A DNA stretch of 55,988 nucleotides, filler included, from Dirinaria sp. TL-2023a (GCA_051941275.1; 3 parts of 3 records of this genome joined end to end with filler, not necessarily neighbours in it), one strand, 5' to 3'. Positions 15,111 to 42,006 are shown, counted from the first letter of the whole stretch. Notes: a model not told the origin generated them from the sequence alone. Translations and numbers: made by a program.

Positions 15111-18100
15111 ATGGAGAACGAAGCTACAATCCTGAACCATTACAATCTCACCACCCTCTACCCCACATCATGGCCGACAGAAAAAGATGAGAGCGACATC
15201 TCGGATTCTGAGCTCTCACCCACCCCGAAAGAAGCTGCATCAAGACGCTCAAAATCAAGATATTCGGCTCTCGAGCGTGTGGGTAGCGATAGAAAGAGCC
15301 TTGTTCCCGGGTCGGAAAGAATGAGGAATGGAGTAGAAAACCTAGTTCAAAAAGATGAGCCAGATCCTCTAGGGGGCGCAGATAGCGTTGTAAGAGTCTT
15401 ACGCGAAAGAGGCATGAACGTCGAGGACGACTCCCGATTACGTATGGGCCTTGCTATGGAGGGCGCAAGTCAATGCTGACACGCCCAGGAAATCGTTTCC
15501 TCCTTTCTTCGACAACTTTCTCTCCCCAGCTCTACCTTTCCCAAGTCCATTCCAGCGCTTCTACACAGACCCTCCTCCAAGGCCTTGAAGTCCTCTCTCG
15601 CTCCATTGATCAGAAATCGGCTTCGTTGAAAGTTCTTGTCGAATCCAACTTTGAGCGCTTCGTCCGCGCTAAGACTACCATAGATAATGTCTATGCCGAG
15701 ATGCGAAATCAAGGTATCCAGTCGGAGTCTGAACGGCCGCCAGCTCATTCTCGAGTCACTAGTAAGGGCAGTAATCATTTCAGAAGTCTGAGTGGGACAG
15801 GGCCATTGAGTCCGGATAGGGGCAGGGATAAGCCATTGCCTAGCGATAAGAAAAAGCACGCGCTTACGAAAGAGAGTGAATACGGTGTCCAGGGTATCAA
15901 AGCGCCTTTAATTGAGGTCGCCGTGAAAGCAGAAGAGATTTGGGGACCTGCACTTGGTGGGCGGGAGCGAGAGGGTGCTTTGAAGCAGGCCCAGGACTCC
16001 GTGCAAACAAATCGCGAGGTGTTCGAGGTCAGCACATCGATCGCCGACTGTATCAAGCGTAAAGATTATGAGAAGCTAGTGGAGGCATATTTTCGAGCAA
16101 GGAGATATGTAGACGATGCCCGAAATACGGCCGAAAGCTCTTTAAGCAGCGGAGTGCCACTTACTGATGCTCAAATATATCAAATTGTTATTACTGGACG
16201 GATGTGGGCCGATGTCGAAGATCGCTTGAATACATTCAAACGCGAAGTTTGGCGGAAGTTGACAAATGGACAAAGCTATTCCGTTTCCGCAGCTGGCACC
16301 AATCCATATGATGAGCACATGGCCTTAATAAGTATTTTGCTCGAACTTGGCGTGGAAGATAATCCCATATGGGTCTGGCTCCTCAGCCGATACGATCACC
16401 TCAAGAATAAGATCAGCGCCACCTTTGAACGATCAAGAGTCGAGATAGAAGTCCTTCGGCGACGACTGGCTAACGACAAAGAGCCATCCGTAACCCAATC
16501 AGCCAGCCACTTGAAGAATCCAAGTCATCAAGGTCCAGATGAGAACGTTCTGAACATAGATACTCCCCAGGTTCTCGAACTCTGGGAGCTGATCCAAATC
16601 TCCATAACCAACCTTCTCTCCACCAAAGGCGGTGTTCTAGGTGAAGTCGCTGACTTCTGGGACAAAGCTCAATCTTTCATTGATGGGAAAGTCCAACGTA
16701 CACTGCCAAACGGTATAGACGGAGGTAGTCGAAAGCACCACCGGCTATCGACAGATGGTGTTCGCGATCTCCAAAATGGAGCAATGGAGTTGATTGATAT
16801 GTTACGGGAGAATGTTCACGCTTTCTTCGCGGAGCCTCCGATAGAAGACATATCAATGCTTTTTTCGCCATCGACGCCGCTTACTCCAAAAACACCTCAA
16901 TCTGCAGTGCTTTCGCCTTACTCGGCAGACACACGTTTCAAATTTGATGCCAACAACCCACCTCCGCCATCGCCAAAGACCGGAGAGCCGTGGGAAGAAT
17001 TCGCGTTTTGGCCACCACATGCCAACTCCCTCAGCGGTGTACATTACCTGGGGAAGATTCTCAGCCTGGTCGGTGCTGCGGCAAGCGAAATGAATGCTGT
17101 GAATCCTAGTCCTGGATCAGAAAAGCTGAAAGCCTTTGTTGCGAGCGCGAGAGAGCGTTCTGCACGCGCTGTGTGCGCTGCCTGGAACCAAGATGCTGGA
17201 ATGTGCAAATACATGGAAGACTGGACTCGAGCGGGCGACAAGCGTGATGTGACCAAACTTCCGTGTACATTCTCGGCATACGAGATGGCGGTATTATCAG
17301 GCCTGCAGAAGATCCTGTATGTTCTCGACGCCGCAACTTCGAGATCAGGTGCTAGCGGGATTGTAAGCCCGCCGCCTTCGAAGCTGCTCCAGACCGTGAG
17401 GAGCCAGTTTGTTGGAAGTTTGTACAAGGTGATGACGGGCATGGTTGACAATGCCGAAAAGGGCGACGAAACGCTCAAAACTGATAGCAACAGCCTCATT
17501 ACAGACAGCGACTCAACTACCACGCCCAGCCGTGTGAGTCCTCCCTCCTCCCTCCTCCTTTCCCTTTCTCTAACAGAAGAATACTCATTGACGTTCCCAG
17601 TCCAATCGCCTCCTCCTAACCCTGTCCTCTTTACGCCACCTCTCCACAAGCACCATCCCTGCTCTAAGAACGCACTTCGAGACCCTCTTCTCCATCACCC
17701 TCACAGACGAAAACCCCCAATTAACCTCGACTGTTACCAAACTCTCGGACCGTCTCTTCGCAGCCTACACCGCCCCACTCAGCGCCTCCCTGCACTCGCT
17801 GATCTTGAGTGGGATCGCAGCTCCGGACTGGATGCCCAGCACCTCGCACCCCACCTCCGTACGACCATACGTCTACGAAGCTTTACTCCGCATGGTGGAA
17901 ATCCACACTCAGCTGTCAACCACCACGCCCGCGCTTCTTTCCGCCGTACGTCCCCCCCCCCTCTATCCAATTCCACTCTCTGATCCAACCGCAACTAACA
18001 TCCCCCAGGTCCTAACATACCTCACAACAACGCTCTCGCGCTCATTCCTCACCGCGCTCAAACAGCGCTCCTTGTACCCGCTGCCGGCACTGATGCAGGC

Positions 18101-18329
18101 GACGCTGGACGTCGAGTTCGTCGCGCAGACGCTGAAGGAATACGTCAGCGAAGAGGCGTCGCGCGTGCAGGGCGAGATCTACGAGGAGCTGGATCGCCGC
18201 ACGGACGACGCTGCGCGGGGCCGGCTGCAGAAGGAATTACCGGAGATGCGGGCCAGTTTGAAGCGGTTGCGGGAGGGCATGAAAGGTGCTTTGGGGGTTT
18301 TGAGACGCGGTGGCAGCAGAGGGAGGTAG
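15111..18329 (+). CDS. SEC5: Exocyst complex component Sec5 (4 exons)
   Basis: FLLSSTTFSPQLYLSQVH...LKVLVESNFERFVRAKTTID, VRPYVYEALL and LMQATLDVEFVAQTL. Introns at about 15442-15488, 17534-17600 and 17946-18008. Confidence 0.92.
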
Positions 18330-18607: not shown

Positions 18608-18707
18608 NNNNNNNNNNNNNNNNNNNNNNNNNNNNNNNNNNNNNNNNNNNNTTAATTAATTAANNNNNNNNNNNNNNNNNNNNNNNNNNNNNNNNNNNNN
18701 NNNNNNN
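18608..18707. other. Artificial contig-joining spacer
   Basis: 44 N + TTAATTAATTAA (stops in all six frames) + 44 N. Confidence 0.97.
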
Positions 18708-18745
<38 letters not shown>

Positions 18746-35732: not shown

Positions 35733-37304
35733 TGCCCCTCCCTGCACGCCTCTCTCTGGCATCTCTGCCCTCCACAGTGGCTTCAGTGGCTTTTTCTCGA
35801 AGATCTACCAATATTCGGCCATGGAAGTACTAGTCTGTGCCGGCAGAGTACGAAGGTAAGAGACGTACCTGACTGCCCCTCCCCACCACACCACTGAAGT
35901 TCTGAACCCATCTTGGTGGGAGGGGTCGACTTCGTAACAACCCATGAACAAGCAGGAACTCCCGCCATCGGCTCCACTTCCAGAGCTGCAAGCATTTTCT
36001 CTTTGCGCTCGTTCTCTCATAGGCTCTTGAGACATCGTGCCTGAGTTGAGGGCTTGAGGCGCGCTCCGACAGACACGAGCTTCGTGTGCACCCCGCCCAC
36101 TGACGGTACCATGACCGCACAATGTGATAAGGCAGTGGCTGGAGCAGCCCAAACCCTACCTGGAGTCAGGTAGGGATCTCACTGCACCTTGACCATGTCA
36201 ACGGCACACAGTATTTTAAGGTAACGACGCTTTGACCAAGAGCTCTCCGGTCCAAAGTCAGGAAACATTGGATGCCACATCATCAATTGTCATTGGGCAA
36301 ACGGTTCACTGGTCCTTCGTATTCTTCAACTACCTTAGGTAAGGTATGGCCGGGATTCCTGTCCACTAACGATTTTTCAACTGCTAGTCTCAACGGTGCT
36401 TGGCTACGGAGTGCTAAGGTAGTAGTAGCCAAAAACGTTTCTCGAAATCTCGTGGGCGACTTGGCCAGCCTTAGCCTTCTTGGCGTTCTCGCTCACTTCC
36501 GACGTCGCTCGTTCGCGCGCAACTAGCGAGGCATGCTTTAGAGCCTGCATCTACCTTTTACCAATGTACTACGACTGCTGAGAAGCATCACAATCAACCT
36601 CTGGAAATGTTCGGGACCATTGTCCAATGGCCAGCTCGCTGGCTGCGGTGCAACAACACTTAGGACTGCCATGTTGTTGAACTCGTACGGAGCAAGTAAG
36701 GTAGCAACCAGGCAGTGTCCATAACGCCGCTCCACGCACTGGCAAAGCAAGTTATTTTAATGAGTGATGGCTCACGAGAGACCGGCCACAGCGGATTTTT
36801 AAATTCGCCGAACCATGTTTGCCTTTTCCCTCCCTTGAGTCAAGTCCTTGCCATGGCCCGTCCTCCGTACGTGGAAAGGGTCTAAGCATGCAAGATTTCG
36901 TGTTCGGCAGCAAGATAAAGTAAGTACCTTATGGGGGTTTCCCTTTGCACCGCTTGCTGAGAAGCTTGGGAGCTTGAGAGCTTGGGAGCTTGGCAAAAGA
37001 GAAAATACGAAAGGTCCTCCCCACTTTTTCTTCTTCTTCTTTCGTTGTTTTCTGCATGGTTTGTCATGGTCCCAACGCAGCTCTTGCATTAGCTTTTCCA
37101 ACTGTCTGCCGCAAGCTGGGATGAGTCAGCGGAGGGAGTGGATCACTGTACTCCGTAGTCCAACTGTCCAGAGAGAGAGAGCTTCTTACTTTTTACCGTA
37201 AGGTAATCTGCCAGCCACCGGGCCTGCATGCATCCTGCCCTGAGTGCCTTGAGTACTGTACTGTACTGTATGTATGTACTGTACCGTACCCTGGCTCGCT
37301 TACC

Positions 37305-37404
37305 NNNNNNNNNNNNNNNNNNNNNNNNNNNNNNNNNNNNNNNNNNNNTTAATTAATTAANNNNNNNNNNNNNNNNNNNNNNNNNNNNNNNNNNNNNNNN
37401 NNNN
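37305..37404. other. Artificial contig-joining spacer
   Basis: 44 N + TTAATTAATTAA + 44 N, identical in design to 18608-18707. Confidence 0.97.
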
Positions 37405-38760
37405 AGTCGATCAAAAGATATCAAAATTTGAGAAAAAGAAAATGAAGTTCAATTTCTGTCCAAAACTATCTAATATGCTATATGAACTAGTTACATCTGA
37501 AAAAAAGAGCAGTTATCAGAGACGAAAGTCCCGAGTTCATAAACCCTGATTCTATAAATATAGTCCTGATCCTATGACTATAGTTCTTAGTATTATAATA
37601 CCCATAATATCATAACAACTTAGTCGTGAGCGTTTCTGTTTGAATCGATTATCTGATATTTAGATTTGCATCGTATCAGCAAGATCTCATGCATGATTTG
37701 AATTAATGTCGTTATATCAGAATCGATGCGATCAAAAAATTTGACTTTATAGTTTTTCTACATAGCATATTGCGTTTGATTAAATTCGCAGACAATAATC
37801 ATCTCATTATATATGATCGACTCGTTATGACATATGATTGTTTTGAGACATCTTTGCAGCTCACATTGCTGTTTTCAGAATCTCACACAATAGTGAAGTC
37901 ATTTGTTAAATAACTGAACACGAAACGCAATATCTGATACGAGCAATATAAAAACTATGATAGACAATTTTACATTTTCGAAAACTACAATAAAGATGAC
38001 TCTATTTATGCTTTCAATAATGCTTCAAAATCGAAATAACAACATCGTCAGCAACAAAATCGCGTTTTATCTTCTGCGCAACATTCGCAACAAATATATA
38101 ATTCGTTTCGCGCACTGTTTTCTATATCGCAACAATAACAACGAATTTATTTTGCAAATCAGTGTTACGAGCATGCACCTGGTATACTACCTGAGGCAAC
38201 ACCTCCCAGGGTTCTCAGGGGTAATGCGCTAACTCGATCGGGATACGCGACACCCGCACGCGTATATATCTGAGACCCCCATTGTATCTAGCTTCTCTTC
38301 TTCTTCTTTCCTTCCTTAGTGATAATATCCTTAGTTAATCATACCTGCATTGACCAGAGCTCTGCACCGGTTCTAACAATCAGATAAACTATGACGATAA
38401 CGATGACGACGAAGATATTGAAGATCTCTTTAATTATTGAGATGAGAAAGATTTATCATCTAAATCAAGAGATTTTTCGTCATTTACACACACTTCGCGT
38501 CGCTTTGACAACGCACATGATAACGACAATAACATCGATGCTAACTGAGTTATTTACGATTACAATTGCAGTCACTCGAGCTGTTCTCATAGATATAATG
38601 ACTAGAAGGCAATAGCATCGAGAGCGATATCTTTTTTCGTTTTTGTGAGCATTGTTATGAATTTTCACATGCTGCTTTCTATGCTTCTGAGACTAGCATT
38701 TTGATACTAGCTTTTATCTTTTACTTCTATGACTTTACATTATGCATTTGACGCATTCCG
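37405..38760 (+). mobile_element. Heavily mutated LTR-retrotransposon relic (probably the gag region of a Ty3/Gypsy element)
   Basis: AT-rich, with a stop-interrupted Q/N/D-rich frame (...QRIYFANQINYDDNDDDEDIED...) that continues once the nested LTR is removed. An LTR-end-like ATAACA lies at 37612-37617. The family is inferred. Confidence 0.6.
38163..38378. mobile_element. Solo LTR, 216 bp
   Basis: TGTTA...TAACA inverted termini, a perfect 5-bp target-site duplication ATCAG (38158-38162 and 38379-38383), an internal TATATA and higher GC than the flanks. Confidence 0.9.
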
Positions 38761-39140
38761 CAACAATGTCGATTTCACATGCTTTCGAGCCTATGACGAA
38801 ACCCTCTGAGACAGATATGATCTATTTAGCAGGCGATTACATTCAGATTTCCCAGGGCATCTCTATTATTATTAGCTTATCCTGATCATATACCTTATAG
38901 GAAATATCATTATATTTGGCTCACCATTTGGTCCATAACATCAACTCTGAGCGCATTGCATTTGAGAGTTCGAAACGAAAATTAGCAGAAAAATTACTAC
39001 AATTGTTACATCATATCAACCACTAATTAAGGTATAGGAGTATACTATATATAAAGTAACAAAAAATCTCTGAATAATTCAACCAGCTCATCTCAAAACT
39101 CAACTCATTTCACAAATAACTCAACCCACGATGGGCCGAG

Positions 39141-40124
39141 TTATCGAGTCTGAAATCCAGGCCAACCGGGCCAACCCACCCCATACCGCCGAGGCCATTT
39201 ATCATAGGCCTTGTCCGACATTCTATGAGTAGACCAAATTTTCCGCATTCGCTCTTTCTGGTTCGGTGTGAACTCAGTACGACAATGATCTTTGGTATAA
39301 TCCATGAAGTTATGCACGCTGTCTAATCCAGGGCGATTTGGACAGCTGTCGTAGGTGACGTGAGGATCGCAATCATGATTCGGCTTCGATTGCACCGGAG
39401 TGTCAGGTATTTTATCTGGATCACCATCGCATGAGTTTCCATCACCGAAGACGTGTAGCAGCCCTAGCCAATGGCCAATCTCATGAGTCAATGTATGGCC
39501 TTGATTGTAGCCCCTGAGAGGATCGCCATGCTTGTGTTCAAGGGGATGACCACCAGGCATTGTGTTGACATCCACTTTGACTCCGTCGGTGAAGAAGAAG
39601 TCGGAGCCCATTGGAGTTGAGGGATCCCATTGTTGAGGGCCTTCCGTAGTAGTGCCCATTGTACCGACTTTACCAGACTCTTTGAAAAGACCGGAAAGAA
39701 AGTAAACGTTGAGAGTGCCATAATCGCCTTGGCGGAGTCTAGTCTTCCACTCAAGGTCATGCTTTTCGTGGCCCCTTGACCAGCCTTCGTTTTTCGTTTT
39801 ATGGACACCTTCAAGAACGAACTCGATGTTTGCTGAATCGTAATCGAGGTTGATTTGTTCCAATTGCTTCTTATGCCATTTGTGAAAATCCTCCACGGAA
39901 CGGTCCTTCGAGTAGATCAGATGGAAATGCGTCTTAATGACGATTTTCTGGTCCGAAGGAATTGAAGCTTCCCTGATCATCAAGTTTTGCTTGATTAGGT
40001 CTTCTTCTGTGGGGCCCCGGAATCCGCAGTAGAGGGGAGTAGGTCCATCGGTAACGCCACCGAGCACAGAGTAGGCCAAAGCGCCGCTGGCTGCAAATGC
40101 TGCGAAGAAAATAGAGAGACGCAT
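39141..40124 (-). CDS. Secreted M43 (pappalysin/ulilysin-like, MEP1-type) zinc metalloprotease
   Basis: Signal peptide MRLSIFFAAFAASGALA, LRQGDYGTLNVYF, zinc motif HEIGHWLGLLH, DTP and Met-turn HNFMDY. Intronless. Confidence 0.92.
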   Translation of the reverse strand: MRLSIFFAAFAASGALAYSVLGGVTDGPTPLYCGFRGPTEEDLIKQNLMIREASIPSDQKIVIKTHFHLIYSKDRSVEDFHKWHKKQLEQINLDYDSANIEFVLEGVHKTKNEGWSRGHEKHDLEWKTRLRQGDYGTLNVYFLSGLFKESGKVGTMGTTTEGPQQWDPSTPMGSDFFFTDGVKVDVNTMPGGHPLEHKHGDPLRGYNQGHTLTHEIGHWLGLLHVFGDGNSCDGDPDKIPDTPVQSKPNHDCDPHVTYDSCPNRPGLDSVHNFMDYTKDHCRTEFTPNQKERMRKIWSTHRMSDKAYDKWPRRYGVGWPGWPGFQTR

Positions 40125-40140
40125 CTTGAGTATCGAATCG

Positions 40141-40214
40141 TATCTCGAGATTTAAATGCTAGAGAGAATGTAGAAGAGAATAGTAGTAAAAGAATTATTA
40201 TCTCGAGATTTAAA
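40141..40214. repeat. 16-bp direct repeat TATCTCGAGATTTAAA upstream of the M43 gene
   Basis: Copies at 40141-40156 and 40199-40214. A minus-strand TATAAAAG lies at about 40325-40332. Confidence 0.8.
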
Positions 40215-42006
40215 GTTAAGAGATGATGTCGATAATGTGCATGTAGTGGAAGGATTGTGTCTCGAAGTCAACTTTTTTTAAGTTGGATGATAGTAGAGAA
40301 AAATTAGAAGTGTCGTACCCCACCCTTTTATAGATGCTATTCACTATCGGCGGAGGCAAAAAATAAAATGCTGCCTGAAACGATCTCTGCCTCGACTCGG
40401 TACCGAGGCCGCACAAGTTGAGAAATTTCTGCACGGGTTGAGGAATGGAAGCCAAGCAACGGTGGACTATGAAACCTGTAAAACCGCACCCTCAACACCC
40501 CCAACAACATTTCTTAGATAGGTTGACCAAAACGGTCTAGCTTCTAGACTAGTCACCTCAACACCACTAAGGGTAAATAGTGCCCACAAATGCTTTTCCA
40601 TAGACTTTAGACAATACATGCAACATACACATACATAGGTACAATTGACTTGTAGGCCTACTAAATCTGACAAAACCCTTTTTCGCTAGTACATGGAAGT
40701 ATCTCTTCTGATGCCATACTATGTGGTTTGATTAGGAAGCTTCGACTTTTTCGTAGCATAGTAAACTTTCGTTATTAAAATTCGATATTCTAAGAACAAT
40801 GGCTCCCAATAAACAGGGTCACTCGGATACTTCGAATAAAGAAAAGCCTTAAGATTGTGCTGGATTCGCGAGAGGTGATACATTTGTACTTATCTGAACT
40901 CATCCAGTGACGCATTGATCCATATTTGGGACTACTACTTTCGATACTCTTGCTATTACCCAAACAGCTTGTACGAGTTCCTGAATTGATGCAGGCTCTT
41001 CTTTGTTAGTCCATACCATGGTCGCCTTGTTCATTGATTTCTCGTGCTTCAGGGCATCCATATTCGATGTCGAGATGAGACTGACCCGCGCGAAACACCA
41101 AGATTGTAATGCGAGGAAGGCAACGACGGCGCATTTAAGGCTTAAAACTTTGTTCAAGTAAAAGACAAATCTTTTCTAGAGAAACTCGCTATAATTCGAT
41201 GAAAATAATCATAAATGAACAAATATGGCTCCGAAGAGAATCGTCTTGTAGATATGTCTTTGTCATGACCTATCAGGATTTCAACAGGATTATTACTCCT
41301 TATAACGCGGTTCTTCATAAAAAGATGGTTTACTGTATGCCACGTCCTGACAGAGTGCTTGGTCAAGAAGACATTCAAGGAATCCCCCAAACTATGACTT
41401 CCTGTACAACCATATCTTAGCAGAGACTCAGTGGGCCATTAGATGAAATTGGCACGGTATCTTAAGAACATCAGTATCTACGCTCTGTTAGTAGTGTCAA
41501 TACGGCGTCGATGATATACCAATACGACTAATCAGGTGAAGAGGTTGATGTTCTAGAGATACCGGGTTTACTTGGTTTCATGACCGAGTAAATTTCCGCT
41601 AAGATAGCAGGACATACCAACGAAATGACCATAGACCGTTCCACCGATGAAGACCCCTTGTCGAATAGACAGTTTGTGGAAGTTGACTAGGAATCATGTG
41701 GGAAACAGTAGTTCCAAAGCAGTAATAAATGTGTCAAGGAACGAAGATCTCTTGTTGCTGGGCAATGGGACAGTTGTGCGATAAGCTAGGCTCTCTGGGT
41801 TTTCATGTTCCGTAGAGATTCTGCTAAGGTGATGAAGATTGAGTACTGCGATGTTCGGAGAGCGAAACTCAGGATGAGATATACCTAGTAATGATTGACC
41901 TGAACCCCGTTCTAGAGCCGTTTCCAGGAGTAGTACCTTCAGTCCAATCTTCCAAGTATTGCATTTGCCGTTGGCTGCCCTCTACGATGCAAGACCTGCC
42001 TTCCCA

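Follow-up and report, generated by a model that had tools for sequence, protein, structure and literature searches.

A dead gene copy depleted of CC and GG in Dirinaria sp. points to CpC-targeted, RIP-like hypermutation

What kind of mutational process can strip a gene-sized stretch of fungal DNA of virtually every CC and GG dinucleotide and yet keep its CA, TG and CG dinucleotides? This question is raised by positions 37604 to 38757 of a 55,988-nucleotide stretch, filler included, from Dirinaria sp. TL-2023a (GCA_051941275.1), which we henceforth call the window. A sequence-only reading had described the segment as the relic of a transposable element, altered by a CpC-targeted process resembling repeat-induced point mutation (RIP). 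We find that the whole is best explained as a dead copy of a gene related to that coding for the metagenome protein P0001, which underwent CpC-targeted C-to-T hypermutation by what we infer to be a RIP-type mutator; we place the probability of this explanation at about 0.7. The relic comprises two blocks, A and B, that flank an insert:

37604..38162, + strand: relic block A, 559 bp, 31.3% GC, CC 0 and GG 0
38158..38162, no strand assigned: left copy of the target-site duplication ATCAG, 5 bp
38163..38378, no strand assigned: insert resembling a solo long terminal repeat (LTR), 216 bp, TG...CA ends (TGTTA...TAACA), 48% GC
38379..38383, no strand assigned: right copy of the target-site duplication ATCAG, 5 bp
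38379..38757, + strand: relic block B, 379 bp, 34.3% GC, CC 0 and GG 1 (38608-38609)

The CC/GG-free blocks and their gene of origin

Base composition alone predicts 27.8 CC and GG dinucleotides in block A (17.2 + 10.6, respectively) and 22.3 in block B (11.8 + 10.5), against observed counts of 0 and 1. The Poisson probabilities of these deficits are 8.6e-13 and 4.7e-09, and the observed count was reached in 0 of 20,000 mononucleotide shuffles for each block. No other CC/GG-free gap in the window is as long as the two that lie here (576 bp at 37602-38178 and 239 bp at 38369-38608); the next-longest are one of 161 bp, across an N gap, and one of 159 bp. Likewise, when 5,586 overlapping 120-bp segments were scanned across the window, full loss of CC and GG was confined to the relic and a further tract of ~150 bp. 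The ends of the mutated tract are sharp, and fall at 37603/37604 and 38757/38758. In the two blocks taken together, the symmetrised odds ratios are 1.26 for CA/TG, 1.74 for CG, 1.32 for GA/TC and 0.87 for AG/CT, and TC/GA outnumber CT/AG by 136 to 89, as against 7920 to 7383 in the whole window. These figures bear out the sequence-only reading in that CC and GG have been purged from both blocks, that CA/TG and CG have been kept, and that TC/GA are enriched. We also observed that GpC is nearly as enriched as CpG in the two blocks, with odds ratios of 1.66 (n=41) and 1.74 (n=43), respectively.

The insert that separates the blocks contains 17 CC and 10 GG dinucleotides, as compared to an expectation of ~26, which is the normal content of unmutated DNA. 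Because the insert carries none of the loss, the depletion is a property of the relic and not of the region. Based on its TG...CA termini and the 5-bp target duplication that brackets it, we read the insert as a probable solo LTR; blastn recovered no copies of it elsewhere in the window, and it matched no tRNA or Rfam family. Excising 221 bp, namely the insert and one ATCAG, restores the frame of the relic, with 38094-38162 supplying 23 codons and the next codon opening at 38384.

The frame in block B to which the sequence-only reading had pointed was used, with TGA read as tryptophan, as a phmmer query against 1.84 billion representative proteins. This search recovered P0001 (419 aa, E 2.8e-10), an orphan metagenome protein with a single member, which is sourced from ENA and derives from a 1,586-bp contig. 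In a tblastn comparison with the window, residues 181-338 of P0001 matched 37626-38093 (E 1e-30, 70/158 identical) and residues 347-418 matched 38387-38599 (E 1e-11), the first base of the reading frame in block A being 37605. The relic and P0001 are collinear over stretches of 156 and 71 codons, interrupted by a 2-codon gap and a 1-codon gap. The GAC triplet at 38600-38602 stands at the last residue of P0001, a glycine, and the TAG stop at 38603-38605 corresponds to the end of that protein; beyond it, block B continues as ~150 bp of CC/GG-free 3' flank. Seven in-frame stops lie within the aligned stretch, and in-frame TGA codons occupy tryptophan positions at 37641 and 37935 in block A and at 38438 and 38546 in block B. 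In 37406-37625, tblastn detected no homology to residues 1-180 of P0001. Taken together, this homology indicates that blocks A and B belong to a single dead copy of a P0001-like gene, truncated at its 5' end and comprising the C-terminal ~240 codons along with ~150 bp of 3' flank. It is this homology, and not open-frame statistics, that reveals the frame, because a shuffle test for a deficit of TAA and TAG stops did not single it out: none of the frames reached significance, with P = 0.26 in block A and 0.13 in block B for the true one.

Other searches yielded no further relatives. With stops read through, none of the six frames of the relic matched a Pfam family at E up to 1, and the segments 37406-39200 and 36500-39500 were without a match when scanned for Rfam families and tRNA. 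A word-index protein search with a wrong frame of block A was without a match, and the same type of search with P0001 recovered only P0001 itself at near lengths and none at longer lengths. Among metagenome contigs, a transition-tolerant pattern for block A gave 0 matches; the same pattern gave 0 matches among viral contigs, where P0001 also had no relative. The second phmmer match, P0002 (E 1.2e-07), was set aside as spurious, as it matches the non-homologous tail of the query. P0002 is a 1,340-aa metagenome protein made up of dozens of near-identical ~40-residue repeats (ITISSQHYRHVCVIHTGCVPSPLVANTTDTFVSYIQVVYHHHQQPTLQTRLCHTYRLCT).

As to the nature of the ancestral gene, the nearest clusters to P0001 in the ESM Atlas are of the gag/PNMA type (scores 0.88-0.91, with 122-138 of 256 shared features), which is a language-model lead only. 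P0001 itself belongs to no Pfam family, with only a sub-threshold match to Tup_N (E 0.19), and a PDB sequence search with it returned nothing relevant, its one hit being a chance match to an esterase (E 0.18). Its single-sequence AlphaFold model has a mean predicted local distance difference test score of 37.9 and is unusable. The solo-LTR-like insert within the relic is in keeping with a repeat neighborhood, as is the position of the relic at the beginning of a contig, since assemblies often break in repeats. We hence keep the earlier description of a transposable-element relic in part: the homology to P0001 establishes the relic of a protein gene, and its transposon nature, while probable, stands as a lead, according to which the gene was possibly a retrotransposon gag.

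Direction and sequence context of the changes

To read the direction of change, we took the ancestral state from the residues of P0001, with proline implying CCN, glycine GGN and tryptophan TGG. The relic has the following codons at these positions:

Proline positions (n=20): TCN 9, TTT 4, TTC 2, TTA 2, CTC 1, CAA 1, GTT 1
Glycine positions (n=15): GAN 7, AAT 2, CAT 2, AGC 1, TAC 1, ATC 1, GTT 1
Tryptophan positions (n=4): TGA 4, TAG 0

A rule under which CC becomes TC and GG becomes GA predicts serine (TCN) or phenylalanine (TTC) in place of proline, aspartate or glutamate in place of glycine, and TGA in place of tryptophan. Changes of this CpC class are seen at 33 of the 39 positions, with T in first place at 17/20 prolines, A in second place at 12/15 glycines, and TGA at 4/4 tryptophans. 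Replacement of proline by serine or phenylalanine (15/20) far exceeds the 11.5% share that these residues have among replacements on the basis of BLOSUM62 (P 7e-11), as does that of glycine by aspartate or glutamate (7/15, versus a BLOSUM62-based share of 13.7%; P 2e-3). The mirror rule, CC to CT and GG to AG, predicts leucine (CTN), serine or arginine (AGN) and TAG; it explains at most the single CTC and AGC codons. In contrast to the 33/39 of the CpC class, changes of the CpA class, tallied where the context follows from the amino acid alone, amount to 4/33 (glutamine to TAA 1/14, histidine to TAT 1/10, cysteine to TAY 0/2, tryptophan to TAG 0/4 and methionine to ATA 2/3). Arginine is retained as CGN at 7/19 positions, and all four TCG codons at proline positions keep the C that precedes G. 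As the coding strand of both blocks displays C-to-T changes in proline codons and G-to-A changes in glycine and tryptophan codons, both DNA strands must have been hit. A separate trend in the alignment is that glutamate of P0001 is met by aspartate at 8/15 positions, in every case as GAT and never as GAC. No transition accounts for this pattern, which may reflect ordinary exchange between aspartate and glutamate together with AT drift.

The role of neighboring bases was addressed by a reversion test on the 127 mismatches between the relic and P0001, in which only transitions in one context were undone at a time and the number of restored residues was compared to that in 1000 permutations of the reference residues:

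3' neighbor C: 32/127 restored, permuted mean 12.0 (standard deviation [sd] 3.2, maximum 23)
3' neighbor A: 7/127 restored, permuted mean 6.2
3' neighbor G: 6/127 restored, permuted mean 8.0
3' neighbor T: 12/127 restored, permuted mean 7.4
5' neighbor C (CC to CT): 11/127 restored, permuted mean 7.8
5' neighbor T: 15/127 restored, permuted mean 8.3
5' neighbor A: 19/127 restored, permuted mean 9.0
5' neighbor G: 25/127 restored, permuted mean 12.0

Among the 3'-neighbor classes, only C beats chance, with CpA, CpG and CpT at chance level. Thus, the codon comparison and the reversion test agree, on both strands, with the earlier proposal of a CpC-to-TpC (GG-to-GA) change, and two observations on which that proposal had leaned are now accounted for by position: TGA where tryptophan was thought plausible falls at all 4 of the 4 tryptophan positions of P0001, and the excess of aspartate ascribed to glycine is seen as aspartate at 6/15 and glutamate at 1/15 of its glycine positions. 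What the comparison shows is a ~940-bp gene fragment with sharp ends that underwent saturating change at C before C on both strands, by transitions only; CpG, the LTR-type insert and both flanks were spared, and CpA and CpT were hit at most weakly.

Several observations weigh against this interpretation and temper it. Of the 17 proline codons with T in first place, 8 also have T in second place (TTT 4, TTC 2, TTA 2), and six of these, the TTT and TTA codons, need an extra C-to-T change in a CpT or CpA context; therefore, the specificity is strong and not absolute. P0001 is just 44% identical to the relic and the ancestral base at each position is assumed, due to which single positions prove nothing and the argument lies in the totals. 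When six, and then five further, conversion rules were simulated on the rest of the window and judged by composition only, CC to TC outperformed CC to CT but had no advantage over CC to CA. A model of pure CC-to-TC and GG-to-GA conversion gives a GpC odds ratio of 1.02 and thus falls short of the observed 1.66. In the reversion test, the 5'-neighbor G and A classes are above their controls too (25 versus 12.0 and 19 versus 9.0, respectively). No second copy of the relic was found in the window by a repeat search or by blastn of the blocks, the latter run both raw and after simulated CC-to-TC and GG-to-GA saturation. Finally, the gag reading leans on a weak language-model lead that no Pfam family accompanies. 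The spread over the 5' classes is what would be expected if the 3' base decides, and a secondary 5' preference is possible. The distance between the observed GpC value and the conversion model is ~1.8 sd, and may be noise or a feature of the progenitor's own composition.

Candidate mutators

In the relic, the first C of each CC was converted to T, such that CC became TC, CCC became TTC or CTC, and GG became GA. We propose that the agent would be a mutator of the RIP type, triggered by repeats, which acts on duplex DNA during the sexual cycle, and that the enzyme is probably a cytosine-methyltransferase-like protein akin to RID or DIM-2. The +1 base would set the target, as it does in RIP, with C taking the place of A in this lineage. 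The sharp limits of the tract are consistent with confinement to a duplicated sequence, and the LTR element would have arrived after the last round of mutation or have been too short or too rare to be recognized. A repeat-directed defense is a reasonable inference, which a single locus cannot establish. The specific proposal that this is true RIP, with a methyltransferase-like mutator that reads the +1 base as C and acts to saturation so that all repeat copies converge on the same CC/GG-free sequence, is tentative, and we would put it at somewhat short of even odds.

The main rival is slow decay, in which CpC-context methylation of the MIP (methylation induced premeiotically) or DIM-2 type in silenced chromatin is followed by deamination of 5-methylcytosine. 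This process is expected to reach the same end state, with transitions on both strands, a decisive +1 base and restriction to the silenced segment, and the saturation along with the extra CpT and CpA changes would fit an old relic. We nevertheless consider it unlikely, given that the limits of the tract are very sharp and the loss is complete where ~50 dinucleotides are expected, that CpG, the classical hotspot of deamination, is kept or even enriched (odds ratio 1.74), and that the 216-bp insert within the tract is untouched. A different possibility is that an AID/APOBEC-type cytidine deaminase with a CC motif edited single-stranded DNA, either the complementary DNA (cDNA) of a retroelement or DNA undergoing transcription or replication. 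The target dinucleotide would be the same, and the victim may, if the lead is correct, be a retroelement gag; however, such editing of cDNA marks one strand, whereas here both are hit about equally on one molecule (proline 17/20; glycine 12/15 and tryptophan 4/4). It is also the 3' base that is decisive, with the CC-to-CT rule restoring 11/127 residues versus 7.8 in the controls, AGN standing at 1/15 glycines and TAG at 0/4 tryptophans, which together render a deaminase very improbable.

It is hardly credible that there was no mutational event at all, with the depletion arising from native composition, from selection against CC and GG, or from a sequencing or assembly artifact near a gap. The tract does sit next to an N linker, where a contig begins, but its frame is collinear with P0001 and its AA and TT runs are intact, contrary to a collapse of homopolymers. 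Proline, glycine and tryptophan of P0001 stand exactly at the serine or phenylalanine, aspartate or glutamate, and TGA codons of the relic; this codon pattern and the collinear frame exclude an artifact. With seven in-frame stops, the relic is ruled out as a coding sequence under selection. CpC-targeted hypermutation of a dead P0001-like copy by a RIP-type mutator thus stands as the explanation that we favor.

Known hypermutation systems and the surroundings of the relic

The relic resembles the products of RIP in Neurospora crassa and other Pezizomycotina in that C:G-to-T:A transitions on both strands, with the 3' base setting the target, have affected a gene-sized segment with sharp ends and left a dead, AT-enriched copy with stop codons. 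It differs from them in its preferred 3' base, which is C and not A, such that no CpA preference is seen; further, TpA/ApT is not raised, and the GC content is lowered only to 31-34%. The standard RIP indices of the relic are 0.62 for TpA/ApT, 1.52 for (CpA+TpG)/(ApC+GpT) and -0.89 for the composite, as compared to 0.73, 1.23 and -0.49, respectively, in the rest of the window. As the sequence-only reading had anticipated, indices built on TpA/ApT under-score this relic, its TpA/ApT and composite values being below the background of the window. The contrast is captured by (CpC+GpG)/(TpC+GpA), which is 0.007 in the relic and 0.82 in the rest of the window. This ratio is defined in the RIPCAL paper as one of four alternative indices, and the available part of that paper names no species with CpC as the dominant form (PMC2621366, equation 5, Table 1). 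In the portion of the literature accessible to us, the order of RIP preference in Neurospora is given as CpA>CpT>CpG>CpC, with CpC last in Trichoderma reesei as well (PMC5496416), and the available text of a survey from 2025, covering 1,239 fungal genomes, describes RIP-like defenses as sharing a CpA preference and makes no mention of CpC (PMC12543289).

The CpG- and TCG-biased systems have in common with what we propose a lineage-specific shift in the sequence context of C-to-T change at repeats. They are unlike the relic, where CpG is kept better than any other context (odds ratio 1.74). CpG-biased RIP-like hypermutation is known in Aspergillus and Penicillium. In basidiomycetes, the accessible part of one study reports hypermutation biased toward TpCpG in Pucciniomycotina and toward CpG in Rhizoctonia (PMC4014442). 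The target dinucleotide in the relic, CC, is also that of APOBEC3G, which inactivates retroelements through conversion of tryptophan codons to stops. APOBEC3G deaminates the 3' C of CC on one strand of retroviral cDNA, resulting in GG-to-AG and TGG-to-TAG changes; in contrast, the relic is changed at the 5' C and on both strands, with GG-to-GA changes and TGG-to-TGA at 4/4 positions.

We found no published report of CpC-dominant RIP in a search that did not extend to supplements or to Clutterbuck's 2011 survey of 49 ascomycetes. With respect to lichen-forming fungi, the available portions of the respective reports describe RIP in Cladonia rangiformis (PMC12542154) and in Xanthoria (10.1101/2025.11.25.690456) by GC content or standard tools, with no analysis of context in those portions, and that of a study on Helitrons in lichenised fungi mentions RIP only in passing (PMC13535494). 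Surveys of RIP use CpA-based indices and AT-rich k-mers, by which a CpC-specific form would, like the relic, be scored as lacking RIP; therefore, the extent of repeat-directed mutation in fungi, including lichen-forming ones, could be underestimated. If the proposed mechanism is correct, the RID or DIM-2 proteins of this lineage would, in comparison with those of the CpA type, represent a natural variant in specificity that might reveal the residues governing target preference, and a lineage of opposite preference would offer a direct comparative handle on how the enzyme of RIP chooses its dinucleotide. For genome annotation, CC/GG-free tracts could serve as markers of dead repeats that are missed by ordinary similarity searches and Pfam, and their origin may be recovered by reading serine and phenylalanine as proline, aspartate and glutamate as glycine, and TGA as tryptophan.

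The immediate surroundings of the relic are as follows:

37305..37404, no strand assigned: assembly joint, 44 N, TTAATTAATTAA, 44 N, with an identical 100-bp linker at 18608-18707
37406..37603, no strand assigned: left flank, AT-rich, 30.8% GC, CC 9 and GG 0
38758..39140, no strand assigned: right flank, AT-rich, 34.7% GC, CC 12 and GG 8 versus 21.4 expected
39141..40124, - strand: neighboring gene for an M43-type metalloprotease, predicted to be secreted (Peptidase_M43, E 3.6e-14; HEIGHWLGLLH motif)

Both 100-bp joints (18608-18707 and 37305-37404) are six-frame stop linkers; the window is made up of contigs joined in series, one of which has the relic at its start (37405). Since its contig begins at 37405, the DNA to the left of the joint need not be its physical neighbor. 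The relic tract sets in ~200 bp past the joint at 37305-37404, and the intervening left flank (37406-37603) has a combined CC and GG count of 9 versus 9.5 expected, with no significant deficit. Within this flank, GG alone is at 0 versus 4.0 expected, which may represent a one-strand edge of the mutated zone or chance. The M43 protease gene on the other side is intact and separate from the relic, and as such marks unmutated surroundings; a search of metagenome contigs for this protease gave 41 pattern matches, from which no relative was confirmed. The remainder of the window is gene-dense fungal DNA, coding for Sec5, an Hsp70-family protein, a PFF1-type vacuolar protease, a GH125 protein, an isocitrate/isopropylmalate dehydrogenase and a Whi5-like protein, and none of the 12 large open reading frames scanned in the window codes for a methyltransferase.

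Beyond the relic, a second CC/GG-free tract is present at 40090-40248 (0 versus 11.7 expected, Poisson 8.5e-06, 0/20,000 shuffles), where it takes in the upstream flank of the M43 protease gene along with the first 12 codons. It is rich in purines (G 40, C 16), and TATCTCGAGATTTAAA occurs in it as a direct repeat, with 68 bp between the two copies. Either a very small patch of hypermutation or merely a GA-rich promoter could account for it. Two further compositional oddities lie near the first joint, namely a GC-rich segment at 18021-18230 (66% GC), in which CC and GG together number 22 versus 46 expected, i.e., half, and a run of more than 30 T residues at 18712-18745, directly after that joint. 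Both look like simple-sequence effects rather than hypermutation.

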